Shown here: piece after piece, positions 8,247 to 59,878 of the stretch | Layout of the letters: every line of letters starts with the position of its first letter | How positions within the stretch are numbered: position 1 is the stretch's first letter | From: a virus | Direction: 5' to 3' (one strand) | DNA: 64,000 bases | IMG/VR virus record: IMGVR_UViG_3300009151_000034 | Span: 85,098 to 149,097 of that record | Notes under the pieces: generated by a model | Told to the model about the DNA's origin: nothing | The model's input: the letters and a program-made list of their open reading frames with translations, nothing else | Databases searched by the model: none | Made by a program: the position numbers and the translations under genes

Positions 8247-9071
8247 ATGAAAAATATCTTAGTTGCTTTAGGTTTGGTTGTTGTTTTATTATTTAATTGT
8301 TCTGCTTTAGGTCAAGTAACCCCACCAGAAATAGCAGAAATTAAAAAATCAGGTCAGCTTGTGGTAGGTATGACTAGTTTCGATAATCTTCCGTTTTATG
8401 CAAAATACGGCGATGATGTTATTGGACTAGATGCTGATATTGCTCGAAAAGTTGCACAAATACTTAACGTTAAAGTTGTTTTTCGTAGAGATGCATCAAC
8501 GTTTCAAGATGTTGTTGAGCAAGTAAAACGCGGCGAATCAAATATAGCCATTTCAAAACTTAGCATAACTCCACCAAGATTGATAGCCGTAAGATTTTCA
8601 GACCCATATGTTAAACTTCACCAGGGGTTGTTGGTCAATCGATTATGGTTGAGCGGGGCTGAAAATGGAAGGTCGTTACCAAAAGTAATGAGAAATTTTG
8701 ATGGTGGGATTGCATTTATTCAAAACACTGCATATGACACATTTGCAAGAAGCAATTTTCCCAAAGCAACCTTTATGCCAAAAGAAAATTGGGAACAAGT
8801 TTTGGAGGCGGTTATCAATGGAAATGCAGCATTAGCTTATCGTGATGAATTCGAAATCAAAAGAATTTCGATTGAACGTCCAGAAAGTAATATAACAACA
8901 AAGGCCATTACATTAACCGATAGCACAGATTATATTGCAGCAGTTGTTGATTTTCGCCACACGCAATTACTAGAAATTGTTAATTTTGTGATCAAAAACG
9001 ATTTTAATGATATCGATGTGCGTAAATTGATTACGATGTATCAGGCCATGCAGAAAAAGTTAAGCAAATGA
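8247..9071 (+). CDS. Amino-acid substrate-binding protein (SBP family 3)
   Basis: Signal peptide. IKKSGQLVVG, GLDADIA, SITPPR..VRFSDPY. Confidence 0.88.
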   Translation: MKNILVALGLVVVLLFNCSALGQVTPPEIAEIKKSGQLVVGMTSFDNLPFYAKYGDDVIGLDADIARKVAQILNVKVVFRRDASTFQDVVEQVKRGESNIAISKLSITPPRLIAVRFSDPYVKLHQGLLVNRLWLSGAENGRSLPKVMRNFDGGIAFIQNTAYDTFARSNFPKATFMPKENWEQVLEAVINGNAALAYRDEFEIKRISIERPESNITTKAITLTDSTDYIAAVVDFRHTQLLEIVNFVIKNDFNDIDVRKLITMYQAMQKKLSK

Positions 9072-10330
9072 TCAAAAAAACACTGACAAGTCCATTCACC
9101 ATATTATTAAGTATTACCATAGGGGTATTGGCTGGTGTCTGGTATCCTGCCGAAAGCCAATTATTTGAAGGTGTTGGTGGTATATATCTTAGTCTGTTAA
9201 AAGTCGTTGTGCTACCATTCTTGTTAGCCACGATATTAGTTGGTATCGTAAGCCTTCTTCAACGAGAAGGTGCCAGCAACATGATCAAAAAAATAATGAT
9301 TGGGTTTATGCTTAGTATGGTCTTATCTGGTGCTATTGGTATTGCGGCAGTAAAATTAACATCAGGTGAAATGACTAACGAAAAGAAAATCATGCTGGGC
9401 AATTTAGTCAATAGCAAAGATAATGGCACCAATAGTTTTGAAATGACTTTACAGGTAACAAACACCCCCGAAGAAAAAACAAATCCATTCGAAATCTTTA
9501 ATAAATTCATTCCAGAAAATATCTTCCAGGCACTTAACCTAGGAGAAAGTCTAAAGGTTGTCGTATTTTGTCTTATCTTTGGTATAAGTCTTGGTAATAT
9601 CAAGAGTGCCGGTCAGCAAGCAATTCTTGATATTTTAAAAACAATTCAGCAGGCATCAATTTCAATTTTCAAATTTCTCAATTATTTGTTGCCATTCGCT
9701 CTACTTGCAATGATTTCAAGTCAAGTGGGCAAAGTAGGAATATCAATTTTTGAAATGATGTTCGAATTCATATACCAACAAGCACTAGGCGGATTGTTGA
9801 TAATTATTGTCGGAACATTAGTTATCTGGATGCGTAGTAAAGTTAGTATTTTAAAAGTAATATCAGAAGTCAAACAAACTTTAATTATTGCGGTTAGTTC
9901 AAGAAGTGCGCTTGCCTGTATCCCATATGCCCAGGATGCACTTACCAAATTAAAATTTGAAACAAATAATGTAGAATTATTGGTTCCTCTTGGCTTCACT
10001 GTCAATCGAATAGGCAGCATTTGTTATTATGCCATTGCCACGATTTTCATTGCGAACATATATGGAGTTGATCTCGGTGTATCGGGTTTGATTATAGTTT
10101 TATTTGGAAGTATGTTAGCGGGTCTTGCATCAGCGGGAACTACAGGTGTATTGACGGTAGCAACGGTGGCGATTGTTTGTGACCTATTAAAACTACCACA
10201 TGAAGCCGCTATCGTTCTTCTTATCGCAGTCGATCCGATAATGGATATGATTCGCACAGCCAGTCACGTATATGGAAACGTTGCAGTATCAAGTTTTGTT
10301 TGTTCAAAGGAATTAATTATCAAGGAGTAA
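9068..10330 (+). CDS. Dicarboxylate/amino acid:cation symporter (DAACS, GltP/DctA family)
   Basis: LLKVVVLP, PENIF, SSRSALACIP, LVPLGFTVNRIG, AVDPIMDMIRT..V.GN. Multiple TM helices. Confidence 0.92.
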   Translation: MIKKTLTSPFTILLSITIGVLAGVWYPAESQLFEGVGGIYLSLLKVVVLPFLLATILVGIVSLLQREGASNMIKKIMIGFMLSMVLSGAIGIAAVKLTSGEMTNEKKIMLGNLVNSKDNGTNSFEMTLQVTNTPEEKTNPFEIFNKFIPENIFQALNLGESLKVVVFCLIFGISLGNIKSAGQQAILDILKTIQQASISIFKFLNYLLPFALLAMISSQVGKVGISIFEMMFEFIYQQALGGLLIIIVGTLVIWMRSKVSILKVISEVKQTLIIAVSSRSALACIPYAQDALTKLKFETNNVELLVPLGFTVNRIGSICYYAIATIFIANIYGVDLGVSGLIIVLFGSMLAGLASAGTTGVLTVATVAIVCDLLKLPHEAAIVLLIAVDPIMDMIRTASHVYGNVAVSSFVCSKELIIKE

Positions 10331-17055: not shown

Positions 17056-17535
17056 TTAATCTAATGGGTCAACGGGCATCAAGATTTTTTCCATACCGAG
17101 AGCGGTTGTGCCATCAATATAAAAATGTTCGTGTTCGATTCCGGTATATTGGTATCCAAATTTTTCATAAAATTTTCTAGCGCGTAGATTTTTGTCAGAC
17201 ACTTGCAAGGAAATTCGAGTGCCTCCATCACGAACAATAAAATTTTCGATAGTTTCCAGCACGAATTTCCCATAATTAGTTTTTTGAAATTCTGGGCGTA
17301 TCGCAATAGACTCAATATTATATGATGAATCTAAATCATGAATTACAATAATATATCCTACTAAAACGCCTTCAACTTCTAGGACATAAAAAAATCCATC
17401 ATAATCGATGCAATCTTCAATATAGTCTTCAAAAACATATTTTGAAAAAGCGTCAGGGCCGAATACTTTATCGATATCAACTATCGAATTAATATCTTCG
17501 GGTTTAACTTTTCTTAAATTTAGTGTTGGGATCAT
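17056..17535 (-). CDS. GNAT acetyltransferase (RimI-like)
   Basis: IAIRPEFQKTNYG, LQVSDKNLRARKFYEKFGY. Confidence 0.85.
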   Translation of the reverse strand: MIPTLNLRKVKPEDINSIVDIDKVFGPDAFSKYVFEDYIEDCIDYDGFFYVLEVEGVLVGYIIVIHDLDSSYNIESIAIRPEFQKTNYGKFVLETIENFIVRDGGTRISLQVSDKNLRARKFYEKFGYQYTGIEHEHFYIDGTTALGMEKILMPVDPLD

Positions 17536-17989: not shown

Positions 17990-18499
17990 TTAAAAACGAT
18001 ATTGTGCGCCAGCAGAAAATAGATGTTCGTCCTTAGCAGCAGACTTTAAATCATGCACAGGGCGGACATTACGATATCGAAAATCGAATTCAACCGATTC
18101 AGATACTGCAACACGAATACCAGCACCGGCATCATAAACTGGAACAGCAGAACCAGACTTGATAGACCCTAGCTTATCGAAAGCATATCCGCCACCAACA
18201 AGAACGTATGGAGTGATTGTAGAATTAGGAATTCGATACTGACCGATAACGTTTACGGTTGCCATTTCACCAGCACCAGTTGAGCGCCAAGCACGTTCAA
18301 ATTCGCTTTCAACACGAACAAAATTACCGATTTGATATCCTACAACAGCACCAACATTGATACGATTTCGTTCATCCGTTGACGATCCAAGTGAACCACC
18401 AGCATAAAGACCAGAACGATCAGCCTTGACAGGATCAGCAGCCATAGCAGCACTACCAAAACCAACAAGCATAGCAGCAGCCAACATAATATTCTTCAT
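17990..18499 (-). CDS. Outer-membrane beta-barrel protein (Omp25/RopB/Ail-like)
   Basis: Signal peptide, GLYAGG, TPYVLVGGGY, C-terminal YRF. Confidence 0.85.
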   Translation of the reverse strand: MKNIMLAAAMLVGFGSAAMAADPVKADRSGLYAGGSLGSSTDERNRINVGAVVGYQIGNFVRVESEFERAWRSTGAGEMATVNVIGQYRIPNSTITPYVLVGGGYAFDKLGSIKSGSAVPVYDAGAGIRVAVSESVEFDFRYRNVRPVHDLKSAAKDEHLFSAGAQYRF

Positions 18500-20602: not shown

Positions 20603-21100
20603 TCAATAAAAAATCGGATTGGTGTTGACAATGGTATCAAAACCTTCATCGAGGGTAGGCATCTCAAGATTTTCCATCATATTCTTCATAACATGTCCGG
20701 GGATAGTTTTACCGGGGCGACTATTAAGACGATCCGAAAGAATATCATTTTTGGGCGTATTAAAAAACACAGCGATCTTATAATATTCTTCTGGAATAGA
20801 CTTAATTTTATTCTTACGGGTTTTGGTCGATGTGTTAGTCTGATCCCAAACGATATCTTTTTTATAATGAATCGCTTCCCGTAAAGTTTCGTTCATGAGT
20901 TTTGTTGCAGCATCTATCATCATATGAAAACATTCGTCATATGTTTTTTCCTGCATCTTAGCCCAGGCGTCGATTGTGTGATCTGTTCCAATCAATGCAT
21001 AATTAGGACGGAAGATATGTTTATTCTTTTCGATCCATGTAGACTTACCAGAACATGGAACACCAACCATCATATAAAGAAACGGACGGGTCTTATACAT
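20603..21100 (-). CDS. Polynucleotide kinase domain (AAA_33)
   Basis: GVPCSGKSTW, WDQTNT..R; adjacent to the RNA ligase. Confidence 0.85.
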   Translation of the reverse strand: MYKTRPFLYMMVGVPCSGKSTWIEKNKHIFRPNYALIGTDHTIDAWAKMQEKTYDECFHMMIDAATKLMNETLREAIHYKKDIVWDQTNTSTKTRKNKIKSIPEEYYKIAVFFNTPKNDILSDRLNSRPGKTIPGHVMKNMMENLEMPTLDEGFDTIVNTNPIFY

Positions 21101-21112
21101 TTTTAATCTCCA

Positions 21113-22291
21113 TTAATCGATAACAACAGAGTTCCATCGAGCAGTCTTTAGAATGCCTCGGGTCTTTTCAAACTGAGTATTTGAACTGAGATGGATATAC
21201 ACGTTTTGCTTCACCATGTCAAGAGAAATTCCTTCCTCTTTTTTATCCCATACTTTAAAAATAAGACCACGCATCGTAGGCTCTGAATCCTGTGTTTTAA
21301 TAGCAAAATTCTTGCGGGAAATACCAGAAGCGGCAATCAACATAAGTTCGCTGTTGATGTTGCCCCAGAAATCATAGATATCCTTCCACACTGCATCCTG
21401 AAAGTCAACCAATTTCTTCTTATCGTTATCGGAAAGAAGTGGCATCAGATCATCAGTCTTTTCGTCAATGATAAGACCAACAACATCACGTTCATTCTCT
21501 AGCATACTTTTGGCACGGTGTAAAGAGATATAGGTATCGGCCTTGACCTTCACCATATGACCATCATCAAAACGGATTACAATACCTTCTCTGTCTTCCC
21601 ATTTGCGGACGCTTTCGGTATTTTCTTCGAATGTTTTAGATGCATCATGAGACTCAACACAAGATACTACTGGAATATCAAAAAACGAAGCAAAAGACGA
21701 TAATGCAGTATGGTTAAGATATCGTCCAGTGAAATTACTACGAACGGCAGTCAAAATAAGTTGGTCTTTTGGGTAGTCAACCACAATACGTTGCTGGCGG
21801 CTGCACCATTCAAAAATAGGCGTCATACCAATATTAATCATATATTCAGCGGCTTTTTGATACTGAGGGTTATTAGCAACAAATACTTCTGCTTGCATAG
21901 AAACTTCGGTCACGCCCATCTTTGTTCCCCAGCGGATATGACCACGAATAGGAATAGGACGGATCATAGAACCATCAAGTTTTTCTAAAAAACGGTGCGA
22001 CTCTGTAATATTAAGATCAGTTACATCGGCTCGTTCGCCATAATTAAAAAATTTGTGATATGGGCGTGAAATAACTTCTCCGGTTTCTGTATCAAAAATA
22101 AGCCCACGAAGTTCACGGCGAATAGCAGAAGCACGATCAATCACGGGAGGAAATGTATCAGACCCCATACGAACATAATTTACGACTGTGTAACTATCTT
22201 TTTCCACAATGATAAAATTATGGTCATCTTTAATCACTTCACGGACTTCTGCCAACGTGATGTTAATCGGAAACTCATAATGTAGGGTCAT
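21113..22291 (-). CDS. rnlA: RNA ligase 1 (T4 RnlA-like)
   Basis: ELRGLIF, SRPYHKFFN, EKLDGSM, REGIVI, KVK. Confidence 0.9.
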   Translation of the reverse strand: MTLHYEFPINITLAEVREVIKDDHNFIIVEKDSYTVVNYVRMGSDTFPPVIDRASAIRRELRGLIFDTETGEVISRPYHKFFNYGERADVTDLNITESHRFLEKLDGSMIRPIPIRGHIRWGTKMGVTEVSMQAEVFVANNPQYQKAAEYMINIGMTPIFEWCSRQQRIVVDYPKDQLILTAVRSNFTGRYLNHTALSSFASFFDIPVVSCVESHDASKTFEENTESVRKWEDREGIVIRFDDGHMVKVKADTYISLHRAKSMLENERDVVGLIIDEKTDDLMPLLSDNDKKKLVDFQDAVWKDIYDFWGNINSELMLIAASGISRKNFAIKTQDSEPTMRGLIFKVWDKKEEGISLDMVKQNVYIHLSSNTQFEKTRGILKTARWNSVVID

Positions 22292-22348: not shown

Positions 22349-22651
22349 TCAAGCTAAATCTTCCTGGACTTGATTATCGACTTGATCCCAGGCTTGATCC
22401 CAGACTTGATTATCGACTTGATCCCAGACTTGATCCCAGACTTGACTCCTGACTTGATCCCAAACTTGATCCATGACTTGTTTTTTGACTTGATCCCAGA
22501 CTTGATCCCTGACTTGATGTAGGACTTGATACTGGGTTCGATTTCTGACTTGAACATTAACTTGATCGCTGACTTTATCCCAGACTTGATTCCAGACTTG
22601 AATTTTAGCTTGATAACTAATTTGATTACTAATTTGATTTTTAACAGTCAT
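22349..22651 (-). CDS. QV-tetrapeptide repeat microprotein A
   Basis: MTVKN..(QVxx)n..QVQEDL. Confidence 0.75.
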   Translation of the reverse strand: MTVKNQISNQISYQAKIQVWNQVWDKVSDQVNVQVRNRTQYQVLHQVRDQVWDQVKKQVMDQVWDQVRSQVWDQVWDQVDNQVWDQAWDQVDNQVQEDLA

Positions 22652-22817
22652 CTAAATCTTCCCTGACTTGATCCCAGACTTGATCTCTGACTTGAATACC
22701 AACTTGATTCCAGACTTGTTTCCAGACTTGTTGCATGACTTGATCTCTGACTTTATCACAAACTTGAACCCCGACTTTATCATAAACTTTATCACAGACT
22801 TGAATGTTATCAGTCAT
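22641..22817 (-). CDS. QV-repeat microprotein B (58 aa, not in ORF track)
   Basis: MTDNIQVCDKVYDKVGVQV..QVWDQVREDLDDC. Confidence 0.7.
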   Translation of the reverse strand: MTDNIQVCDKVYDKVGVQVCDKVRDQVMQQVWKQVWNQVGIQVRDQVWDQVREDLDDC

Positions 22818-22986
22818 TTAAATCTTCCCAGACTTGATCGTTGACTTGATCCCTGACTTGAATACCAACTTGATTCCAGACTTGTTTCCAGGCTTGATGT
22901 AGGACTTGCCTGCTGACTTGTTGATTGTCAACTTGATCCCAGGCTTGAATTTTAGCTTGATAACTAATTTGTTTTTTAACAGTCAT
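22810..22986 (-). CDS. QV-repeat microprotein C (58 aa, not in ORF track)
   Basis: MTVKKQISYQAKIQAWDQV..QVWEDLND. Confidence 0.7.
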   Translation of the reverse strand: MTVKKQISYQAKIQAWDQVDNQQVSRQVLHQAWKQVWNQVGIQVRDQVNDQVWEDLND

Positions 22987-23170
22987 CTAAATCTTCCTGG
23001 ACTTGATCCCGGATTTGATCCCTGACTTGATCGCTGACTTGTTCCCTGACTTGATTCCAGACTTGATGTAGGACTTGATACTGGGTTCGATTTCTGACTT
23101 GAACATTAACTTGATCGCTGACTTGTTCCCTGACTTGATCATGAATATCATAATTAAATTTATTATACAT
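22976..23170 (-). CDS. QV-repeat microprotein D
   Basis: MYNKFNYDIHDQVREQV..QVQEDLDDC. Confidence 0.65.
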   Translation of the reverse strand: MYNKFNYDIHDQVREQVSDQVNVQVRNRTQYQVLHQVWNQVREQVSDQVRDQIRDQVQEDLDDC

Positions 23171-23324
23171 CTTCGTCGGCGGATAGAACATTTTTGACTG
23201 TATCTTTAATAACTTTCAAAAGACCTATAGAAGCAAAATGGCGCATAGCCTCATCATCAAGATCAAGTGTTAGAGTAGCACCACCATCATCATGATCCTG
23301 GCAGTCAACAACTTCAATTTTCAT
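23163..23324 (-). CDS. Hypothetical protein (53 aa, not in ORF track)
   Basis: MKIEVVDCQDHDDGGATLTLDLD.. with GGAG SD. Confidence 0.6.
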   Translation of the reverse strand: MKIEVVDCQDHDDGGATLTLDLDDEAMRHFASIGLLKVIKDTVKNVLSADEDV

Positions 23325-23325
23325 T

Positions 23326-23685
23326 TCACAATCTCCCTAAACATTCTTTAAATTCTTCTGGTAAAATTACATTGTTTGGCACATTCTTAAACATCCATGC
23401 GATTTCGTGAGGCTTATAACCAGAGAGGCCAGTCCCGACAGCAGTAAGAATGAACCGTAGATCAGGATTATCATACGAAAATTGGATAAAGATGTCAACA
23501 TATTTTTTGATCTCTGTTAATGGTAAAGTATTGATTTTATTATCTTTTGTCGGGATTGCATAGCTGTTACCCTGTAGACCAACACCCTGACCATAGATAG
23601 CGCCATGATACTTCTTAGCAAAAAGTGCGGCACCTTTACCGTGCCTTCCGGCTGTGTTGGAACCGAAAGTGAAAATATCACGCAT
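23326..23685 (-). CDS. Conserved phage protein (IFxFGSN..HG.GAA family)
   Basis: IFTFGSNTAGRHGKGAA, YAIPTK, VGTGLSG. Confidence 0.8.
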   Translation of the reverse strand: MRDIFTFGSNTAGRHGKGAALFAKKYHGAIYGQGVGLQGNSYAIPTKDNKINTLPLTEIKKYVDIFIQFSYDNPDLRFILTAVGTGLSGYKPHEIAWMFKNVPNNVILPEEFKECLGRL

Positions 23686-23854
23686 AATTTAAATCCTCTT
23701 TTACTTGATTTATGACTTGAACCCCGATTTGACCATAAACTTGATCCCAGACTTGATCCCTGACTTGTTCATAGACTTGTTCATAGACTTGATCCCCGGC
23801 TTGACCCCCGACCTGATCCCTGACTTGATACTTGACTTGTTTTTTAACGGTCAT
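23678..23854 (-). CDS. QV-repeat microprotein E (58 aa, not in ORF track)
   Basis: MTVKKQVKYQVRDQV..QVKEDLNYA. Confidence 0.7.
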   Translation of the reverse strand: MTVKKQVKYQVRDQVGGQAGDQVYEQVYEQVRDQVWDQVYGQIGVQVINQVKEDLNYA

Positions 23855-24026
23855 TTAAATCTTCCCAGACTTGACTTGAGGCTTTATCAATAATTTCACG
23901 GTTGACTTTATAACTGACCGGATCATTGGCTTGGCCCCAGATTTCATATTTGGCTTGATTACAAATATGATCATAGAATTGAATGTTGACTTGTTTTGTG
24001 ATTTTAATTTTATCTACAATAGTCAT
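23844..24026 (-). CDS. Diverged QV-family microprotein F
   Basis: Ends QVWEDLNDR. Confidence 0.65.
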   Translation of the reverse strand: MTIVDKIKITKQVNIQFYDHICNQAKYEIWGQANDPVSYKVNREIIDKASSQVWEDLNDR

Positions 24027-24205
24027 AGAAACTTTAAATCTTCATCCAATTGAAATCTTAGATGCACCTTATATTGATTAAATACTATATCTTCAACTTC
24101 TCCCCATATAACAAAAGAAATGTGTTCGGCATAATTTAAGTCCCAAATTTTTCGAAAACTTTCCCTATCTGTGTATGAAGCCATAATTTTATTTTTAACG
24201 GTCAT
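24023..24205 (-). CDS. Diverged QV-family microprotein G
   Basis: Starts MTVKN, ends QLDEDL. Confidence 0.65.
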   Translation of the reverse strand: MTVKNKIMASYTDRESFRKIWDLNYAEHISFVIWGEVEDIVFNQYKVHLRFQLDEDLKFL

Positions 24206-24380
24206 TTAAATCTTCACCAATTTGATTCCAGGTAAACCACCACATATCACCCACAGAACCATCTGCTGGCAATAACATAGTAATTTCATAAGGATAAACA
24301 TCACTATAATATTTTTCTTGACATCGATAACGACAATCCCGCCATACATCTTTTTTTATTTTATCTATAAGTTTATTCAT
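24195..24380 (-). CDS. Diverged QV-family microprotein H
   Basis: Ends WNQIGEDLNDR. Confidence 0.6.
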   Translation of the reverse strand: MNKLIDKIKKDVWRDCRYRCQEKYYSDVYPYEITMLLPADGSVGDMWWFTWNQIGEDLNDR

Positions 24381-24411: not shown

Positions 24412-24488
24412 TGGTAGACGGAGCCGGGTATGATCCGACATAATGACCGTTATGAGCGACCCGCATTTTCCATTTATGCTATCCGTCC
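24412..24488 (-). tRNA. tRNA with CAT anticodon (Met or Ile2), atypical T-loop
   Basis: GGACGGA/TCCGTCT-A-CCA, GGTCG-CTCATAA-CGGTC, T-loop ATCATAC. Confidence 0.8.
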
Positions 24489-24857: not shown

Positions 24858-25304
24858 TCAAAAATCTCCTGGTGCTACTTGAGCACATATAATACCATTT
24901 GCACGCCAAGCATCTACAACTCTATTTCTGTCGTCAAATGCAATAAGAGGATTGAAACCGTCTGCCCGAATTTGTTCAAGAAGTTCAATTTTAACAACTG
25001 CATCATCACGATAGTCGCCCTTCTTACGCATATAAAGGTTCTTAGGTGGAAGAACATGATGCCGTAGCCATTGCTCAGTTTTTTCGCGGTAAATTTCTTC
25101 ACGCCCTGAGCAGAACACGATATCCCAACCAGAGTGCCAAAGAGAAACCACAACATCGATAACCGGCTGAATTGGTAAATCATTCTCTACATTTGCATAA
25201 AATGCTTTCCAATTTTTTGGGTTAGATTGAATCCATGAACGGCGATGTTCTAGGTTGGCAATAGTTCCATCTAAATCACAAATTATTGATTTTTTTACGT
25301 GCAT
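24858..25304 (-). CDS. HAD-family polynucleotide 3'-phosphatase (Pnkp phosphatase domain)
   Basis: DLDGTIA, CSGRE, MRKKGDYRDD..K, FDDR. Confidence 0.88.
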   Translation of the reverse strand: MHVKKSIICDLDGTIANLEHRRSWIQSNPKNWKAFYANVENDLPIQPVIDVVVSLWHSGWDIVFCSGREEIYREKTEQWLRHHVLPPKNLYMRKKGDYRDDAVVKIELLEQIRADGFNPLIAFDDRNRVVDAWRANGIICAQVAPGDF

Positions 25305-25326
25305 ATTAAAATCTCCATAATAAAAG

Positions 25327-25524
25327 TTAATCTTTCCAGTTACCGATAGGATCAAAACCAGAATACTCACCTAGAAAATGTTTTTTGGCAATTTCTGCTT
25401 TTTCTTTGGTTTCAAATTCTACTACCTTAGAAAATACTATCTGATCATTTTCAATTTGAGTCATACAAACAAAGAACAAACCACTAGCGGTTTCAAAAAC
25501 ATCAGCGTTACGTTTATCAGCCAT
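25327..25524 (-). CDS. Hypothetical early protein
   Basis: AAGGAG SD, TTGACA..TATATT promoter. Confidence 0.65.
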   Translation of the reverse strand: MADKRNADVFETASGLFFVCMTQIENDQIVFSKVVEFETKEKAEIAKKHFLGEYSGFDPIGNWKD

Positions 25525-25578: not shown

Positions 25579-26184
25579 CTACTTTTTATTATGATTGACA
25601 ATTTTTTTGCCTGGGGTTCCTAACATGATTTTAGTATGCCATGCCCCACCAATCTTACGCTGATAAGAATGATGTTTATATTCTGGATGTGCCATAATTT
25701 CGGGATCATCGTCTGGTGGCCTTCTAATTTCATCATCTGAATCTAAATGATGATGCACATGATGATATGGAACAATATGCTTGGATAGCTTTTCGCTACC
25801 AACATGTTTTTTCATACTAGCCAATAAATTAGAAGATTGTTCACCATATGCTCTGCCGGTTGTAAGATCAGCAACAACCATTTTACCTGCTGCTCTTTTG
25901 CCTTCTTTTGAACCATCAGAAGCAACCGCAACCAGTTTACGACCATTCTTATCTTTATATAAGACGGCGGCAGTAATTTTTCCGCCTTCTTTTTTAAGTT
26001 TCCACATAGGAATATTTTTCTTCATATCTTCTGTGTCATGAAACCCAGAACCATGAATCCCACCGATTTCTTTATATGACTTATCCAACATATCTTTAAC
26101 ATGCTGGGCGTGTTCTGATTTTCTAGGATCATCGCCTATTAAATTTACAAAACGCTCTGATATGAATTTGGAAAATGAAATCAT
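25579..26184 (-). CDS. Late protein with capsid-targeting-like N-terminus
   Basis: Start MISFSKFISE, GGAG SD, CATAAATA upstream. Confidence 0.7.
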   Translation of the reverse strand: MISFSKFISERFVNLIGDDPRKSEHAQHVKDMLDKSYKEIGGIHGSGFHDTEDMKKNIPMWKLKKEGGKITAAVLYKDKNGRKLVAVASDGSKEGKRAAGKMVVADLTTGRAYGEQSSNLLASMKKHVGSEKLSKHIVPYHHVHHHLDSDDEIRRPPDDDPEIMAHPEYKHHSYQRKIGGAWHTKIMLGTPGKKIVNHNKK

Positions 26185-26216
26185 AAAAATACTCCATAGG
26201 TTTTGAGTATTTATGA

Positions 26217-26435
26217 TTAAAGAGGCTTGAGTTCCCATCGGCGTGATACAATTTGGGTCTCTGTAATCCACCGGCAATCAGAAGGTCCATTTTTACCTTC
26301 CTGAACTGTTTTGATGCAAATTTTATTAGAATGCAGACTTCCGACACCAGCAACTACCCATTCATTCCCAAACTTAGAAATAGCGGTGCGTTCGGTGTTG
26401 CGCGTCGGAAGCCAAACTACGAATTGCTTATGCAT
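26217..26435 (-). CDS. Hypothetical early protein
   Basis: Follows a repeated early-promoter/GGAG cassette. Confidence 0.6.
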   Translation of the reverse strand: MHKQFVVWLPTRNTERTAISKFGNEWVVAGVGSLHSNKICIKTVQEGKNGPSDCRWITETQIVSRRWELKPL

Positions 26436-26596
26436 TAGGTTATCTCCCTCTCTGATAAAAGCATCTTAACAGAATCGGCAGGGTAGTCAAGATTTATTTT
26501 CTATCCAGTCATTAATGCGTATTCCAATCTTACACCCAAGGTATCCAAATCCAATCACAACAACTAGATTGATCCAAGGCATTAAGATATTAAGAA

Positions 26597-26920
26597 TCAC
26601 ACATTCTCCTTGATGACAAAGGTGGTGCCTCGAATGGTGATACGCTGAACGGTATCAAGATTGATCGAACGCCACGCATTGTTCGCCACATCAAAGACAG
26701 GCATAAGATGGGGATTATTGGCCTTACGTGTGACCAAAGCAGCCTTAGAAGACTCAGAGGCATCATCACCCTTCAGAAGAGAGTGACCAGCATGGGTTTG
26801 CACATTCATAGTCCGAAGAGTGCCATCAGCCTTAATAAAGTCCACCCCAATGAAGGTAGAACCAGCAGACTCGATAAGAGCCTTGATGTTTTCACGGCGA
26901 GATTCGATTTGGTTGGTCAT
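26597..26920 (-). CDS. WYL-like/SH3 beta-barrel small protein
   Basis: FIKADGTLRTM..VFDVANNAWRSI. Confidence 0.7.
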   Translation of the reverse strand: MTNQIESRRENIKALIESAGSTFIGVDFIKADGTLRTMNVQTHAGHSLLKGDDASESSKAALVTRKANNPHLMPVFDVANNAWRSINLDTVQRITIRGTTFVIKENV

Positions 26921-26970
26921 TTTAAACTTCCTTGTATATGTTTTTTGTCTATGAAAGAAACTTAGACGGT

Positions 26971-27258
26971 TTAAGCGAGAATGTCAAGCAATTTCTTGCG
27001 TTCTGCCTGAATATAATTTTCAATGAGCCAAGGAGCCAAGGTAGCACGAACTTGGGTTTCTTTGTTATAATCTTTGAATCCAGTGAGGTAGAACCCCATT
27101 GTGCCACAAAAAGTAGCACCCTCATTTTCAATCGTGCTATACGCCATGCTGACCATATAATCCACAAGAGTTTCTTCTGTGAACCGTTCCTTGGCGTGGG
27201 TGTTGACGATGAGAAGAACGCGGGCGACCTGAGCAAAATCGGTTTTATCATAGTTCAT
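26971..27258 (-). CDS. Hypothetical early protein
   Basis: Cassette-associated ORF. Confidence 0.7.
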   Translation of the reverse strand: MNYDKTDFAQVARVLLIVNTHAKERFTEETLVDYMVSMAYSTIENEGATFCGTMGFYLTGFKDYNKETQVRATLAPWLIENYIQAERKKLLDILA

Positions 27259-27317
27259 GGAAACTCTCCGGTGTTGATAAAGGCATCATAGCAGATTTCA
27301 GCCGGTTGTCCAGTGTT

Positions 27318-27656
27318 TTATGGGTTGATTGGAGTATCGTAAAACACAGGAACACCTTGACGCTTGCAGTCCACATTAAGTGAAGTTGCCAGTTTAATCG
27401 CGGATGCCACTTTGGGAGGCACGGTAGTGTATACGTTCCAGGCAGGCACGGCAAGGCCCAAAGACTTGAGGAGTATCACGCGCCAGCGTCCCAATTCATA
27501 GGCATACGCACGCGCTTTGGTGGGTGCGCCATCCACAAGCGCATAGTCAAAAGGTCGGCCATTGCGGGCATCTTCCCACCCGGCTTGGCAATAAGGAACG
27601 CGGGGATCATTTTTTGCCTTGAGACCGTTGCGGTGAGTGCCAGAAACATTTGACAT
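27318..27656 (-). CDS. Hypothetical early protein
   Basis: Cassette-associated ORF. Confidence 0.7.
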   Translation of the reverse strand: MSNVSGTHRNGLKAKNDPRVPYCQAGWEDARNGRPFDYALVDGAPTKARAYAYELGRWRVILLKSLGLAVPAWNVYTTVPPKVASAIKLATSLNVDCKRQGVPVFYDTPINP

Positions 27657-27733
27657 GGTGTGGTATCCCTCAGTGATAACGCTTGGTTGATAAAGACATC
27701 ATACTCGATAGGCGCCGCATAGTCAATAGTTTT

Positions 27734-28099
27734 TTAGGCCCCCAACACTTTTTTTATGGGGTGTTCATTATTATATTTGATACCCCAGCGGAAACAATAA
27801 AAGCCCACATCGTCTTTGCAGTCCATCGCATCCATATCCCATGCGAGGGCGGTGGCGTGATCGATGCCATGGTCGTCCATGAGGGCAGCAATATGCGCCT
27901 CCCATTTAGCCTGGAACACGATCTCGGCTTGCCTCTCTTCCTCAGCGGCACGCTGGGCGGTTTCAATAAACCCATCCCAAGTAGCCTGCAATTCGGCGTC
28001 GGTCATGGCATCATAGTTGAGGCGGAACCGAAACCCATACGCTTCCTTCGACAGATCAGAGATTTCGTTGAGAAGGAATTCGCGGGAGAAAGTGGTCAT
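27734..28099 (-). CDS. Hypothetical early protein
   Basis: Start MTTFSRE, ISDLSKEAYGFR motif, cassette-associated. Confidence 0.75.
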   Translation of the reverse strand: MTTFSREFLLNEISDLSKEAYGFRFRLNYDAMTDAELQATWDGFIETAQRAAEEERQAEIVFQAKWEAHIAALMDDHGIDHATALAWDMDAMDCKDDVGFYCFRWGIKYNNEHPIKKVLGA

Positions 28100-28158
28100 C
28101 TGGTGGTATCCCTCTGTTGATAAAAGCATCATAGCAGAATTATCAGGATAGTCCAGTC

Positions 28159-28359
28159 TTATTTTAGTCCATATTTGATAAAATCCAAAGATGCAAACTC
28201 AGCACCCTCTTCAGATTTCATATAGCGTTCATCCACCTGCACATCATTTTCGAACATGGTGACGATGTAGATCATCTTGGTGGTGTGGGTGTCATAGTCA
28301 CCATAGCAGGCATCTTCGTCATAGGTGTCAACGTCGATCACTGTGCGGCGGTTCGTCAT
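28159..28359 (-). CDS. Hypothetical acidic early protein
   Basis: Cassette-associated ORF. Confidence 0.65.
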   Translation of the reverse strand: MTNRRTVIDVDTYDEDACYGDYDTHTTKMIYIVTMFENDVQVDERYMKSEEGAEFASLDFIKYGLK

Positions 28360-28409
28360 GTGGCTATCTCCTGTCTATGAAAAGAATATAGCGCATTCAC
28401 AAATTAGAG

Positions 28410-28856
28410 TCAAGAATTTTTTTCAGCCTCGACGCAGAATTCTTCACGACTGCCACGGCTCAACTCAGACCAGGGCAAAAAATTGAGCAAAGATTTGGCA
28501 TGAAGAGCACGACCAGCAGTTTCACGGTCAGACATTACCACGATGGTTTTTGAAGAAGTAGGTGCAGGAATGGGCGCAGGAGTAGCCGCAGGCTTGATAG
28601 GTTCCATAATTCGCGCAACAGGAACCGTTGCCACCACAGGCATCACAGCAGTCTCCACCAGAGATGCGCGGAAAGCCTGCATTTCCGCCTTAGTGCGGCG
28701 ATTACGTTTGGTTGCAGTCTTAGCAGTCTTAGCAGTCTTAGCAGTCTTAGCAGTCTTAGCAGTCTTAGCAGAAGTTACAGGAGCCTTAGCTGCCTGCATT
28801 TCAATCTTAGTCCGACGACGCGCACGCTGACCATTGGAAGCAACACCACGAGGCAT
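28410..28856 (-). CDS. Basic histone-H1-like early protein with (KTA)6 repeat
   Basis: Two RRTKxEMQA motifs flanking a 9-nt tandem repeat. Confidence 0.7.
   Translation of the reverse strand: MPRGVASNGQRARRRTKIEMQAAKAPVTSAKTAKTAKTAKTAKTAKTATKRNRRTKAEMQAFRASLVETAVMPVVATVPVARIMEPIKPAATPAPIPAPTSSKTIVVMSDRETAGRALHAKSLLNFLPWSELSRGSREEFCVEAEKNS
28714..28767. repeat. Perfect 9-nt tandem repeat (GCAGTCTTA)x6
   Basis: Directly visible. Confidence 0.95.
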
Positions 28857-28907
28857 GTAGGTATCTCCGTTCTTGATAAAGGCATCTTAGCAGGTTTTGG
28901 GCGAATG

Positions 28908-29171
28908 TCAATCAAAAACTTTGACCACATGAACACCCTCGCAGCGATAAACTACTTCGCCGCGAATCGAAAAGGTATCACCATCCTTAAGGTCATTGCA
29001 AGTCTGAAATTCATCATACAGAGCACAATGCATAGCCTTGCCATTCCTACCGATTGTATCCACATCTCCTTCAGGATGCCGAATGAGCAAAAGAGTGTTG
29101 GTTTCACCCAACCACGTCTTAAGGCCCTTAATGTAATAAGAACCATTTTCTTTGACGAGTTCGTAGTTCAT
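28908..29171 (-). CDS. Hypothetical early protein
   Basis: Cassette-associated ORF. Confidence 0.7.
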   Translation of the reverse strand: MNYELVKENGSYYIKGLKTWLGETNTLLLIRHPEGDVDTIGRNGKAMHCALYDEFQTCNDLKDGDTFSIRGEVVYRCEGVHVVKVFD

Positions 29172-29235
29172 GTCTGTAGGTATCCCTTGTTGGTAGAAGC
29201 ATCATACTCGAAGGCACCGGGATAGTCAAGTCTTT

Positions 29236-29481
29236 CTATTGAGGTTTAGAAAATACCATTCCGATATTTTTTCCCCAATTTTTCGCAACCCACTTCTGCA
29301 ACACGGTTTTGGCGTCAGTGCCTTCAACCCAGACAGCTTTGCCACGCCACATAGAATGCGTGACGCCCATTTTGCCCCGGAAAGCAGGCTTGTCAGACGT
29401 AAGCACTTCGAAATGGTGGCTGCCAAACGCATTACCGTTGGCGATGGTGAAGTTGAAGTGCGCGCGGTTGGTGATGGCCAT
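29236..29481 (-). CDS. Hypothetical early protein
   Basis: Cassette-associated ORF. Confidence 0.7.
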   Translation of the reverse strand: MAITNRAHFNFTIANGNAFGSHHFEVLTSDKPAFRGKMGVTHSMWRGKAVWVEGTDAKTVLQKWVAKNWGKNIGMVFSKPQ

Positions 29482-29550
29482 GACTCAATCTCCTGTTGGT
29501 AGAAGCATCATACTCGAAGGCACAGCATACACAAGTCTTATTTTGTATTA

Positions 29551-29865
29551 TTAGAAATTATAATCGTAAAATTTACGAGGTTTGTCAGCAAGTTTGTAGC
29601 GATTGCCGTTCGAGTCTTGCCAGCGCCCATCTTTATTAAGGCGGATGCGGATGGTGCGATAAGTTTGATTGCTGGTGATAGTCCATTCTTGATCATTCTG
29701 GCGCAAAAAATGCCCAAAGAAACCACCGGGAGCAAAACCAAGTTTATTTTCGGAATTGGAACGAACCGCATCCATCTCACGGATTTCGAGGGTCTTGTCG
29801 CTGACCCTGCGGATGATTTCATAGGGGTTGATATCGCTGTAGCCGGTATGGTTGGCGTAGTTCAT
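29551..29865 (-). CDS. Conserved hypothetical early protein
   Basis: MNYAN..SDINPYEI..KFYDYNF. Confidence 0.75.
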   Translation of the reverse strand: MNYANHTGYSDINPYEIIRRVSDKTLEIREMDAVRSNSENKLGFAPGGFFGHFLRQNDQEWTITSNQTYRTIRIRLNKDGRWQDSNGNRYKLADKPRKFYDYNF

Positions 29866-29921
29866 GTCGTCATCTCCTGTTGGTAGAAGCATCATATCAG
29901 AAACCACAGCATATGCAAGTC

Positions 29922-30116
29922 TTATTTTGTATTATTAATAAGTGCGTCGGTAACAGAGGCGATTTTAGGAATGCATTTGTCGGCGTAATGTTCATTGAGT
30001 TGCGCGCAGTATTCTTCGGCTTGTTTGTATGTGGCGAAGGTTCCCTGGGCGCGGTGTTCGATGGTGCCTTCATGGAGGTCTTCGATGACGAGGCGGATGG
30101 TGTTTTTGAAGCGCAT
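29922..30116 (-). CDS. Hypothetical early protein
   Basis: Start MRFKN; the stop lies in the next cassette. Confidence 0.65.
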   Translation of the reverse strand: MRFKNTIRLVIEDLHEGTIEHRAQGTFATYKQAEEYCAQLNEHYADKCIPKIASVTDALINNTK

Positions 30117-56448: not shown

Positions 56449-58095
56449 TTATAAAAACCTGTTCTCTACATCGTCTGACATCCAGTTTCTTGATGGTCTT
56501 ATATTATCATCAACGTCATACACACGACCATCATCAAAAAATCCAAAAGGCACCATGTCATTCATAATATCTTCTTCGGTTTTTTCTCTGAGTCTGGCCA
56601 ACGTATTTATGTCCGTAATATCCTTGAAATATGACTGATCTGATAACCAAGCGAAAAGAACTAGACCCATTACCATATCATCATGTGTTCCAGATTCTGC
56701 TTCGTAACTAACACCTTTTCTTGAGAAGGTAGAAAGTTCGCTTATCGTATTGAAATCATTAATAATTAACTGGTTTTGTTCTATGAGCAATTTAAGAATC
56801 GAGCAGCCTACTGACTTAACAGACTTGGTTGTTCTGATGCCTTTGTCTATGCTACCACCAAACCCAGTAGTAATTCTTTTTCCAAGACGACCAGCAGATT
56901 CGGTAAACAAAATATTATCATATTCAAAATCATGATGAAGGGAAGTAGAAACTTGTTCTCCAATATCATTAATTTCAACAAGTGTGGCTGCGTTGTTATA
57001 TGACTTGACAACACGAAAAATAACATCAGCATAGTCGATGGGTGTCACCATATTATTACGATAACAACATACTTGTTCATATGGCATTTTGGTAACATCA
57101 ATGACGCTGAATGCCGAATAATCTAGACCCTTACCTCTAGAAACGTCAACAATACAAACATAGGTATGATTAGGAACAGGATTTTTGAAAAGATATAACC
57201 CATCTTTTTGTGTTAATGGTGTCTGATGAACAAGTTCTTTAAGTTTCCATCCAGCAATAAGTGTTCCCGATGATCCTAGGAATTCGACTTCATATTCTTG
57301 TGCAAACTTTTCGGTATCAAAATTCATTGCGGCAAGAGTATCTTTTTTCCAAACTTCATCGCGTCCTGGAACGTTTTGCCATATTACTTTGATTGGGTTA
57401 TAGTTATTTTTTCCTTCATGTGCGTTCTGCCAAATTTTATAAAAATGGTTTAGTCCGTTAGGCGTTGATACTAGAACAACCTTTGTAGTTTGGCCTGATG
57501 TGATGGTAGGATACACTGAGGTAAAGAATGTGTCCCAATTTTCAATGAATGCGGCCTCATCAATAAACAACAGATTGATTGCAAACCCACGAATGTTGTC
57601 TGATGATGTGGCTGATGCAATAACACGAGAATTATTCTCTAGGACAAATGATCCTTTATTCCATTCAATAACACCTTGCTGTAACCACTTAGGAAGATGC
57701 TGATATGCAAGCTGAATTTTACCAAGAATTTCTCTGGCAGTATCACCCTTGTTAGCAAGTAAAGCCACAACCTTTTCGGAATGAAATAAAATATACCAAA
57801 GAATAAATCCACAGGTTGTTGTCGATTTTCCGGCTTGTCTCGCGGTTCCAATAATTGTGTAACGTTTCTCTGCCATTGAACGTAACATTTCACGTTGATA
57901 ATCATATGGATGAAACGGAATAAGACCACGATCAACGTTGATGATCTTCATGTAAGTCTCAACGAAATATATAACGTCAGTGGAACATTTTATGTATTCT
58001 TGTATCGTTTCAGGTGTCCATTGAACTTCTACACCACTTCTTTTTAAAAGAGGATTTCCAAGATAAGATTTAAAATTTGTAATTAATTCAGACAT
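56449..58095 (-). CDS. gp17: Terminase large subunit
   Basis: RQAGKST, FIDEAAF, STPNG, DVSRG, HDDMVM. Confidence 0.97.
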   Translation of the reverse strand: MSELITNFKSYLGNPLLKRSGVEVQWTPETIQEYIKCSTDVIYFVETYMKIINVDRGLIPFHPYDYQREMLRSMAEKRYTIIGTARQAGKSTTTCGFILWYILFHSEKVVALLANKGDTAREILGKIQLAYQHLPKWLQQGVIEWNKGSFVLENNSRVIASATSSDNIRGFAINLLFIDEAAFIENWDTFFTSVYPTITSGQTTKVVLVSTPNGLNHFYKIWQNAHEGKNNYNPIKVIWQNVPGRDEVWKKDTLAAMNFDTEKFAQEYEVEFLGSSGTLIAGWKLKELVHQTPLTQKDGLYLFKNPVPNHTYVCIVDVSRGKGLDYSAFSVIDVTKMPYEQVCCYRNNMVTPIDYADVIFRVVKSYNNAATLVEINDIGEQVSTSLHHDFEYDNILFTESAGRLGKRITTGFGGSIDKGIRTTKSVKSVGCSILKLLIEQNQLIINDFNTISELSTFSRKGVSYEAESGTHDDMVMGLVLFAWLSDQSYFKDITDINTLARLREKTEEDIMNDMVPFGFFDDGRVYDVDDNIRPSRNWMSDDVENRFL

Positions 58096-59878
58096 ATATT
58101 TTTACACATTCTTTTATGATTTGAATTCTTTTTGCACGGTGCATAGATTCTTTTATTGGCAGTGTCATATTATAAATTAATTTATGGAAGTGTTTATTTC
58201 TTTCTGCTGCACTAGAAACTTGAGAATTTTTATCATTCAATGCCGTTTTATATTGTTCAAGAGTTGCATTAGGATGATTTGCTACTGCTTTACGAACTTC
58301 AATATCTTTATCCTTTAATCCATTATCGAGGTCTTTTTCAGAAGCATTTGGATCACTTGCTGCTGCTATACGTTTTTTTACATCTTCTTCATATTGATCA
58401 CTTTTTGCTTTATGTTCTGGTGTTGCCTTTTTATTATTTACTGCTATCTCACGAACATATTTGTCACCATCTGTTATTGCTTTATCAAGGTTTTCCTTTG
58501 ATGCATTACCATTTCCTGCTGCTGCTTGACGAACATAGGAATGATCATCATTCAAGGCTTTATCTATATGTTCTGATGTAGCATTTTTGTTCAATGCCGC
58601 TTCACGACGAACCCGATCACTTTTATCATTTAATGCTTTATCAAGATGTTCTGATGTAGCATTTGGATGTGATGCCGCTGCTTTACGAACACTAAAGTGT
58701 TCATCATTTAATGCTTTATCAAGATGTTCTTTAGATGCATTTGGGTTTGATGCTGCTGCTTTACGAACTTCATAATCATCGTCATTTAATGCTTTATTAA
58801 GATGTTCTGATGTTGCGTTTGGATGTGATGCTGCTGTTTCACGAATTATTCCTATTTTATCATTTAACGCTTTATCAAGATGTTCTTTAGTTGCATTTTT
58901 GTTTGATACCGCTGCTATACGAACTATTCCACTTTTATCATTTAATGCTTTATCAAGATGTTCTGATGTAGCATTTTTGTTTGATGCCGCTGCTTGTCGA
59001 ACTTCATAATCATCGTCATTCAATGCACGATTTATATGTATTTTGTTGGCATTTGGATGTGATGCTGCTGCTTTTCGAACTTCTTCTTGTTCATCGTCTA
59101 ATGCGTCATGAATATTACCGCTAGTAGCATTTGGGTGAAGAATAGTTTCTTTTTCGTTATCATTATAAACCTCTGGGTGTTTAGTATAAAGCAAACTCCC
59201 ACCTTTATGTTCACCAGAAAGTCTCTTAGCTAAATCTTCTACATGTTGTTTAAACCCTGCATTATCAATACCATAATGCGAATCAACGGCATATGCTGTA
59301 TGGCCTTCATCATTTGTGTGTGGCTGTAATGTGGCCCTTGCAATTTCTTCACCTTTATGGTTGTGGAGATATGCAACAACAGTGCCATGTTTTACTTCAT
59401 GCTCAAGATAATGACGATTCGATCCGGTATTAAAATTTTTACAAGATTGATTTTCCCAGGATTGATTATGTGAAGTCTGGCCAGCAACACCTTCTGGTGA
59501 TCTAGTAATTCTAACACTCAACCCAGTTTGTTTCTTACCTTGTCTTGTATTATCGTTTGCAAACCCATTAATAAGTTTTGGATCGGCTTTTGATTTTGTA
59601 AGCATTCCTCCGATCTTTGTCTTACGTCCATACTTATCATATGTGACACCTGCTCTATAATCATCTGGATGAATTTCATGACCTAGGTGCCGTTCTACTG
59701 CCTTATGGACTTCTGACTTGTCAACGGTTCCAGCAAGTTCCTCATGTTTTTCATCATTACCTTTGCCGAAAAAATGATCGGTGGCTTCTAGAGCTTTTGG
59801 ACCACGAGGCCATTCAGCAACTTGGGCTTTTTCTTCATCGTTAAGTTCTTCTTTGATGAAATTTTTAAATCTAATCAT
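58088..59878 (-). CDS. HEAT/LRV-repeat protein with capsid-targeting-like N-terminus
   Basis: ~11 x 25-aa repeats (HPNATSEHLDKALNDxxxxVRxAAAS); start MIRFKNFIKEE. Confidence 0.8.
   Translation of the reverse strand: MIRFKNFIKEELNDEEKAQVAEWPRGPKALEATDHFFGKGNDEKHEELAGTVDKSEVHKAVERHLGHEIHPDDYRAGVTYDKYGRKTKIGGMLTKSKADPKLINGFANDNTRQGKKQTGLSVRITRSPEGVAGQTSHNQSWENQSCKNFNTGSNRHYLEHEVKHGTVVAYLHNHKGEEIARATLQPHTNDEGHTAYAVDSHYGIDNAGFKQHVEDLAKRLSGEHKGGSLLYTKHPEVYNDNEKETILHPNATSGNIHDALDDEQEEVRKAAASHPNANKIHINRALNDDDYEVRQAAASNKNATSEHLDKALNDKSGIVRIAAVSNKNATKEHLDKALNDKIGIIRETAASHPNATSEHLNKALNDDDYEVRKAAASNPNASKEHLDKALNDEHFSVRKAAASHPNATSEHLDKALNDKSDRVRREAALNKNATSEHIDKALNDDHSYVRQAAAGNGNASKENLDKAITDGDKYVREIAVNNKKATPEHKAKSDQYEEDVKKRIAAASDPNASEKDLDNGLKDKDIEVRKAVANHPNATLEQYKTALNDKNSQVSSAAERNKHFHKLIYNMTLPIKESMHRAKRIQIIKECVKIYV

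Follow-up and report, generated by a model that had tools for sequence, protein, structure and literature searches.

What does a row of short, overlapping open reading frames (ORFs) in a T4-like phage encode, and what could such a row be for? The question is raised by positions 22349–24380 of the window, by which we mean the whole 64,000-nucleotide stretch analysed here. The window makes up the final 64 kb of a complete phage genome of freshwater origin (IMG/VR record IMGVR_UViG_3300009151_000034; 149,097 bp, with terminal repeats), in which the T4-type gp23 capsid, gp20 portal, gp18 sheath, gp17 terminase and UvsW were all found. The row, called array 2 below, consists of eight minus-strand ORFs of 58–100 amino acids (aa) chained by overlapping stop/start junctions; a second one, array 1, is located at 67.9–68.7 kb of the genome, about 39 kb upstream. 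Our answer, to which we give a probability of roughly 0.55, is that this row of coupled micro-genes is a detached tract of the DUF6745 protein family (Pfam PF20530), that the mini-proteins bind a DUF6745 core lacking the repeat, and that the complex provides a changing specificity, most likely for counter-defence. The eight ORFs, from the first in the chain to the last, are the following (QV, glutamine–valine).

24195–24380, minus strand: ORF H, 61 aa; first in the chain; no QV units; family likeness confined to the last 13 residues (the junction)
24023–24205, minus strand: ORF G, 60 aa; no QV units; family likeness confined to the last 23 residues
23844–24026, minus strand: ORF F, 60 aa; degenerate QV member, period of four still discernible; 31 per cent identity to E
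23678–23854, minus strand: ORF E, 58 aa, 177 nt; canonical QV mini-gene with MTVKK start and EDL end
22976–23191, minus strand: ORF D, 71 aa; QV mini-gene, MTVKK start replaced at an insertion
22810–22986, minus strand: ORF C, 58 aa, 177 nt; QV mini-gene
22641–22817, minus strand: ORF B, 58 aa, 177 nt; QV mini-gene
22349–22651, minus strand: ORF A, 100 aa, 23 units; last in the chain; stops 57 nt short of an RNA ligase gene

Small ORFs made of four-residue units

Five of the ORFs (A–E) are composed of 12-nt units, CAAGTC-NNNNNN, and F is a degenerate copy. The concrete observations of the initial annotation were all confirmed. The QV-unit repeats that it described for this region were recovered by TRF as arrays of period 12, 24 or 36 over A–E (22367–22803, 22828–22898, 23000–23140 and 23714–23829). 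In-frame units of this kind, inside ORFs of fewer than about 170 codons, are present in A–E, degenerate in F and lacking in G and H. The eight paralogues first proposed are accordingly reduced to five clear QV genes and one degenerate one. G and H, which align to the QV family profile over the terminal residues listed above only, are, as far as their sequences tell, small ORFs sharing the junction, and paralogy with the QV family is not demonstrable for them. The three ORFs of exactly 177 nt (E, C and B) had been reported before; their exact sequences are missing from a collection of 15 billion proteins, which fits gene callers overlooking them.

Parsing of the nine clear QV ORFs (A–E and four of array 1) gave 124 units with the consensus CAAGTC-NGG-GAT. 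Positions 1–6 hardly vary, not even at the synonymous positions 3 and 6, and the synonymous position 12 is T in most units; at positions 7, 9 and 10 the nucleotide is nearly random, and all changes there alter the amino acid. In the twelve small ORFs of the two arrays, 87 of 98 QV pairs read CAAGTC; in the long ORFs of the genome only 10 of 83 do. The units are dominated by rare codons: GTC makes up 13 per cent of the valine codons of the genome and AGG 5.7 per cent of its arginine codons. The word GACTTG occurs 123 times on the plus strand of the genome (about 30 expected), and 86 of these copies fall into three 1-kb bins, corresponding to the two arrays.

Such a pattern could have arisen if the repeat acted as nucleic acid, CAAGTC every 12 nt forming a binding array for protein or RNA (an iteron, a centromere-like site or a sponge) in which the ORFs are incidental; the near-invariance of the hexamer, even at synonymous positions, and its rare valine and arginine codons would suit this. 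A codon-blind scan of a viral contig collection (CARGTN at a period of 12 nt, six times) points the other way. Hypervariable QV tracts in other lineages are encoded by five other hexamers (CAGGTC, CAAGTG, CAAGTT, CAGGTG and CAGGTT), one of them being used nearly exclusively in each tract, for example in 58 of 59 or 35 of 35 units. CAAGTC as a universal signal was dropped on this result. The peptide repeat is kept across lineages and the hexamer is not, so that the other frames and the opposite strand vary from lineage to lineage; this disfavours a function at the DNA or RNA level and supports selection on the QV peptide, and hence translation of the QV frame, as far as comparative sequence data go. 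In addition, the tract is plainly coding where it is part of DUF6745 genes, and the junctions hold start, stop and ribosome-binding site in a fixed register. We regard a nucleic-acid role as very improbable. The likeliest source of codon uniformity within a tract is steady duplication and loss of units.

The junctions themselves, already recognized in the initial annotation, are repeated as follows.

22647–22661, minus strand: junction GAAGATTTA[AG]ATGAC, comprising the EDL codons, a G-rich ribosome-binding site and the next ATG; further copies at 22813–22827, 22982–22996, 23850–23864 and 24201–24215

These five copies in the window and four in array 1 are the only ones in the 149 kb. The upstream ORF ends in E-D-L-x-x-x-stop, the next ATG lies inside this end, and the upstream stop follows 8 nt past that ATG, giving an overlap of 11 nt. 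The G-rich codons ahead of EDL, (A/T)GG GAA, are placed at −12 to −7 from the next ATG, and G is enriched at −14 to −9 across 137 long ORFs of the genome. Since EDL falls where the next gene has its ribosome-binding site and start, the fixed C-terminus, previously viewed as a feature of the protein, is partly a matter of translational coupling. Arrays in unrelated contigs have M-x-x-V-K starts and similar acidic tails encoded by different nucleotides, which makes a protein-level role of the ends likely as well. Sigma-70-like promoter sites are as frequent as in shuffled sequences (20 versus 19.6 expected; the phage itself may use other promoter types), and terminator-like sites are few, with none at the junctions. 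A TATAAAT sequence 20 nt before the start of H is not interpretable.

Two features of the units concern translation. The unit consensus (A/T)GGGAT holds a Shine–Dalgarno-like GGGA, so each tract (22349–23854) is dense in potential internal ribosome-binding or pausing sites, and the true ribosome-binding sites of the junctions are the last of each GGGA series. The genome has 13 tRNA genes, and the phage tRNAs (two for Gln, and Trp, Arg-UCU, Gly-UCC, Asn, Tyr, Cys, Ser and Leu-CAA) match many of the dominant residues and rare codons of the units; the unit codons served are CAA, TGG, AGG/AGA, GGG, AAT, TAT and TGT. This match may be no more than the usual tRNA complement of a T4-like phage.

Free-standing versions of a DUF6745 tract

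A profile of the mini-proteins found 2205 representatives among 1.84 billion proteins. Its best matches are DUF6745 proteins of 300–600 aa, the match beginning near residue 75–120, and all ten of the long proteins examined that carry a hypervariable QV tract internally belong to PF20530. An alignment of 44 family members places this tract, of 36–246 residues, in a loop, after residue 79 of the phage's own protein. That protein, of 293 aa and tract-less, is the single PF20530 match in the genome (E 2.3e-30) and has 873 relatives at E ≤ 1e-5, many of them on contigs of 100–160 kb. Its gene, at 68969–69850 on the minus strand of the genome, stands directly upstream of array 1, which abuts it; adjacency to a DUF6745 gene thus holds for array 1 and fails for array 2. 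Candidate culturable phages with a DUF6745 gene are Ma-LMM01 and MaMV-DC of Microcystis and the Mycobacterium prophage prophiGD102-1.

Fused and free-standing forms are distributed in a complementary way. None of the 31 fused DUF6745 loci that were fetched carries mini QV ORFs, and 19 of 20 repeat-less DUF6745 loci carry mini-genes; the latter count, unlike the former, is partly forced by the way in which the loci were found. Two or more mini-genes are present at 40 loci, several of which have more than one array. Taken together, these comparisons show, at the level of sequence, that the mini-genes are free-standing versions of the hypervariable QV tract inserted in one loop of thousands of phage DUF6745 proteins. 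The initial annotation had overlooked both this origin of the repeat and the twin array next to the only DUF6745 gene.

The internal tracts of DUF6745 proteins and array 2 have in common the four-residue unit, with constant QV and two variable residues, and the nearly exclusive use of a single hexamer per tract. Here, in contrast to the fused proteins, the tract is split into genes of 58–100 aa, each having a start, an acidic tail and a coupled junction of its own, located 39 kb away from the DUF6745 gene. The products do not match PF20530 either: a search with ORFs A, D, E, F, G and H gave no match at E ≤ 1. By sequence, then, the mini-proteins appear to correspond to the insert and not to the PF20530 domain. 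Other searches were equally blank: PHROG and Pfam scans of the mini-proteins returned sub-threshold low-complexity matches only (DUF4816, EnY2, phrog_5189 and others), no GenBank phage matched 21000–26000 by megablast, a tblastn search of phages with ORF C was empty, probably because of the low-complexity filter, and none of the 25 candidates of a word-indexed protein search with ORF E was significant.

Structure prediction gave a confident model of the DUF6745 protein (pLDDT 93.6), which had no match among solved folds (best Foldseek E 0.21; best VIA-align Z 4.4). ORF E alone was modelled as a single helix from residue 2 to 57 (pLDDT 77.5), in agreement with the helical peptides first proposed. 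The model of the two together reached an ipSAE of 0.81 (runs 0.83, 0.70 and 0.81), the best of three controls being 0.00; in a calibration that is approximate because custom alignments were used, 58 of 80 solved complexes and 2 of 110 mismatched pairs reached that mark. The runs had at least 41 per cent of contacts in common, with a partner pLDDT of at least 82. The best-defined contacts of ORF E are constant V and Q residues (27, 31, 35, 39, 46, 47, 50 and 51) and L55 of the tail. In most units the fourth residue is free of contacts, whereas Q, V and the third residue touch the core, so that of the ‘one variable face’ suggested initially only the fourth position is exposed in the model. On the DUF6745 side the contacts include the nearly invariant W25, G29, Y48, P65, W97, P141, I160 and G173, and the predicted contact residues surround the loop where fused relatives hold their tract. 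The models support binding of ORF E to DUF6745 in trans.

The mechanism that we propose would work as follows. Array 2 would be translated as coupled micro-genes, each product being one helix of about 58–100 residues made of four-residue units. A mini-protein would be bound, through its Q and V residues and its C-terminal end, in a conserved groove of the repeat-less DUF6745 protein, a groove predicted to adjoin the point where fused relatives hold the tract. The two arrays would together supply some ten alternative peptides, any of which could occupy a single core, and by analogy with the repeat-number-tunable gp54 of mycobacteriophage Tweety (see below) the complex may serve an ever-changing specificity, most likely in counter-defence. 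A further-reaching version, that DUF6745 and the two arrays are parts of one split, combinatorial system in which about ten recombining helical subunits generate diversity without reverse transcriptase against changing host defence (or other) targets, is tentative, and we think it rather doubtful.

The mini-proteins could instead act without DUF6745, as helical decoys or inhibitors of changing host or rival-phage targets or by self-assembly, the likeness to the tract reflecting common descent only. Array 2 is indeed 39 kb away from the DUF6745 gene, within a region of tRNA and RNA-repair genes; ORF E is modelled as a stable helix on its own; and other contigs hold arrays without DUF6745 in the fetched stretch (e.g. 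L034, L107 and L261). Many of these ‘orphan’ arrays, however, are at contig ends, and a DUF6745 gene may be nearby. Independent action also sits poorly with the strict absence of mini-genes from fused loci, with the high docking score, clean controls and conserved residues next to the insertion point of the tract, and with sequence exchange with array 1, which abuts DUF6745: a 33-nt block including the rare CAAGTT is common to array 1 and ORFs B and C, and implies exchange across 39 kb. We consider action without DUF6745 unlikely.

Turnover of units and whole ORFs between strains

Blocks are also shared within array 2. B and C have 39 nt exactly in common, and A and D share a longer block.

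22511–22575, minus strand: 65-nt block in A, identical to 23060–23124 in D and maximal at 65 nt

Array 2 is split at 23163–23685 by two unrelated genes, which are listed here together with the two flanking genes.

24412–24488, minus strand: tRNA-Met gene, directly upstream of H and co-directional
23326–23685, minus strand: inserted gene of the A1S_2505 family (phrog_2072), 119 aa; NCBIfam E 1.9e-43; outside the repeat family
23163–23324, minus strand: inserted acidic ORF, 53 aa; no family match; protein cluster of 5 members
21113–22291, minus strand: T4 Rnl1-type RNA ligase gene, directly downstream of A; context and strain anchor

The 3′ end of ORF E overlaps the start of the A1S_2505-family gene; the two-gene cassette takes the EDL junction of E as its own ribosome-binding site and start, and has displaced the MTVKK start of D. 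A homologue of the A1S_2505-family gene is labelled as a macro-domain protein in one GenBank phage record, Pfam assigns no family to it, and no confirmed relative was found in the viral contig collection.

A metagenome contig of 2,315 nt, L273, covers the whole array 2 locus of a close relative. Its flanks are nearly identical to the window (RNA ligase 5′ end 99.1 per cent, A1S_2505 gene 98.3 per cent of nucleotides, spacer between A and the ligase 98.2 per cent), and its array is not. ORF E has 66 instead of 58 aa, with 24 nt added in frame and the remainder 80 per cent identical; ORF D has one additional 12-nt unit (+12 nt); ORFs C, B and A (58, 58 and 100 aa) are swapped for ORFs of 28, 58 and 60 aa. 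The body of ORF G is unalignable, only its last 10 or so codons being aligned, ORF F is shifted out of frame by a 1-nt deletion, and in place of H there is a 70-aa Cys/His-rich, zinc-finger-like ORF (L273:152–364, plus strand) without a match in the genome of the window. The three starts of the lower array, MTVK in the window, are all MAVK in L273, a concerted change within the array. The ratio of non-synonymous to synonymous change (pN/pS) between L273 and the window reaches 1.8 in E and 2.5 in D; the RNA ligase and A1S_2505 genes stay at 0–0.28, and the 53-aa ORF is at 0.65.

A third layout was found in a run from another study (X4; flanks about 96 per cent identical): the A1S_2505 gene is joined almost directly to H, E–G are missing and H has an in-frame deletion of 15 nt at 24308. 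Three further runs (X1–X3) gave contigs identical to the window but broken inside the array; the alternative joints 22462>22967 (X1) and 22518>22967 (X2) have 30 nt on one side and may be paths in the repeat graph and not co-existing variants. With the exception of F, hypervariability with the frame kept thus holds between near-identical strains. The array is clearly not invariant, as L273 and X4 differ from the window, and of the frame-breaking indels that would have spoken for untranslated ORFs only that in F was seen, the changes in E and D being in frame.

These comparisons show, from sequence alignment, that the mini-genes evolve as 12-nt units, and entire ORFs at the conserved junctions, are gained, lost and exchanged. 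The recombination-driven diversifying family suggested in the initial annotation is well supported, both by mosaic blocks within and between arrays and by an array that differs beside flanks of 98–99 per cent identity, and its suggestion that no reverse transcriptase is needed agrees with an RVT_1 search of the complete genome, which found none.

Turnover of this kind might be expected of a near-neutral minisatellite in a hyperplastic region, where slippage of a 12-nt unit without a stop in any frame would leave functionless products. All six frames are open through the tracts, F remains open in L273 in spite of its frameshift, members are lost or replaced between strains, and three were skipped by gene callers. 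Yet QV persists in many lineages under different codons, with the other frames altered, the indels of E and D between strains are multiples of 12, and start, stop and ORF length are retained even in members without the repeat. The M-x-x-V-K starts and acidic C-termini recur in arrays of unrelated nucleotide sequence, and the 40 loci with two or more mini-genes would likewise be hard to reconcile with slippage. Neutral slippage is in our opinion improbable, somewhat more so than action of the mini-proteins without DUF6745.

Several points weigh against a detached tract that docks on DUF6745 in counter-defence. Array 2 has no operon link to the DUF6745 gene, about 39 kb away. Nothing ties DUF6745 to defence (PADLOC gave no hit for it, its upstream neighbour or the small ORFs), and the protein has no fold match and no known function. 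The docking is a model made with a small custom alignment and not a measurement; a helix of 58 residues is long for a partner of 293 aa, and fused tracts reach about 250 residues, far beyond the capacity of the groove. The EDL end may be set by the ribosome-binding site of the next gene and not by binding, and the excess of pN may stem in part from the alignment of non-orthologous units. Finally, the frameshift of F in L273 and the loss or replacement of whole mini-genes in L273 and X4 indicate that individual members are dispensable.

The surroundings of array 2 are rich in genes of RNA metabolism: the tRNA gene, the Rnl1-type ligase and separate polynucleotide kinase and phosphatase genes. 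This neighbourhood fits an accessory or counter-defence island, as context and not as evidence. The position of the array is not conserved among relatives of the RNA ligase at 37–50 per cent identity, since none of 50 such loci has a QV tract within 8 kb. The polynucleotide kinase-like domain (AAA_33/zeta-toxin fold) and the PNKP-type phosphatase domain are encoded by two separate genes (20603–21100 and 24858–25370, both on the minus strand) that flank the ligase and array 2, and are not fused as in the T4 Pnk-like protein. Elsewhere in the window, an OmpA-like outer-membrane beta-barrel gene (17990–18499, minus strand) lies amid tRNA genes, with a GNAT acetyltransferase at 17056–17535. A full-length gene of the sodium:dicarboxylate symporter family (9068–10330, plus strand; Pfam SDF, E 2.7e-64) is on the strand opposite to most genes, and the gene for a 596-aa HEAT/leucine-rich-repeat-variant protein (58088–59878, minus strand) is directly upstream of the large terminase gene. 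The G+C content is 0.45–0.46 at 26000–30000, against 0.33–0.41 elsewhere in the window; this segment may be foreign or RNA-rich.

Comparison with known diversifying systems

Our literature search found no paper on DUF6745, on typical QV strings or on QV mini-gene arrays, and as far as it reached the arrays are undescribed in print. What is new here is the comparison of array 2 in three strains, the codon-blind evidence for selection at the peptide level and the location of an array far from its presumed core.

Diversity-generating retroelements resemble array 2 in that changes are concentrated in a short stretch, at first and second codon positions, with the frame and the scaffold residues kept. 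Array 2 is not such an element, as the complete genome lacks a reverse transcriptase. It also has no pair of template and variable repeats, and its variation is not adenine-specific; diversity comes from recombination of units and ORFs and from point changes.

Another comparison is offered by the promoter/stem-loop (PeSL) cassettes of T4-type phages, whose conserved motifs allow small ORFs of hyperplastic regions to be shuffled as modules (PMC2839356; PMC4122927). Here too the genome is T4-like, small ORFs are swapped, lost and replaced between close strains, and the break points fall at a short conserved motif between genes. The motif of array 2, however, is a coding overlap of ribosome-binding site, start and stop instead of a promoter with a terminator stem-loop, and promoters, as far as sigma-70-like sites tell, are no commoner than in shuffled sequences.

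The closest parallel is the tetrapeptide-repeat protein gp54 of mycobacteriophage Tweety, and likewise Che8 gp57 and PMC gp51 (PMC2884959). Tweety gp54 is a mutationally tunable counter-defence against Phrann gp29/gp30, and repeat number tunes its activity (PMC9262239). In its Ala-Ala-x-x repeat the third codon positions are invariant and the first and second variable, which has been read as selection for variation (PMC2884959). Like the QV mini-genes, it consists of tandem 12-nt units with two invariant and two variable residues and fixed third codon positions, and the number and content of its repeats vary between close phages; its gene is dispensable (PMC2884959), to which the loss of mini-genes may be likened. 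The invariant pair is Ala-Ala in gp54 and Gln-Val in array 2; gp54 is one protein of 374 aa and array 2 a row of micro-genes; and the function of gp54 was shown by escape mutants, whereas array 2 is known from sequence and models. Membership of gp54 in DUF6745 was considered and dropped, as Pfam has no family for gp54 and an hhalign comparison with the DUF6745 alignment gave a probability of 0.13 per cent. To judge from sequence, gp54 is an analogue of the QV mini-genes and not a homologue.

Tweety gp54 is the one experimental case of a hypervariable tetrapeptide-repeat protein; the repeat described here is widespread, with 2205 protein clusters by profile. In a large group of T4-like phages it appears to have left its carrier protein and to exist as arrays of coupled micro-genes whose make-up differs from strain to strain. 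Standard gene callers overlook three of the eight genes of array 2, so that such mini-genes are under-counted in phage annotation. If docking in trans is true, it would provide the first testable hypothesis for DUF6745, a large family without known function or fold. It would also be a simple, undescribed viral route to many versions of one complex from a recombining gene library.

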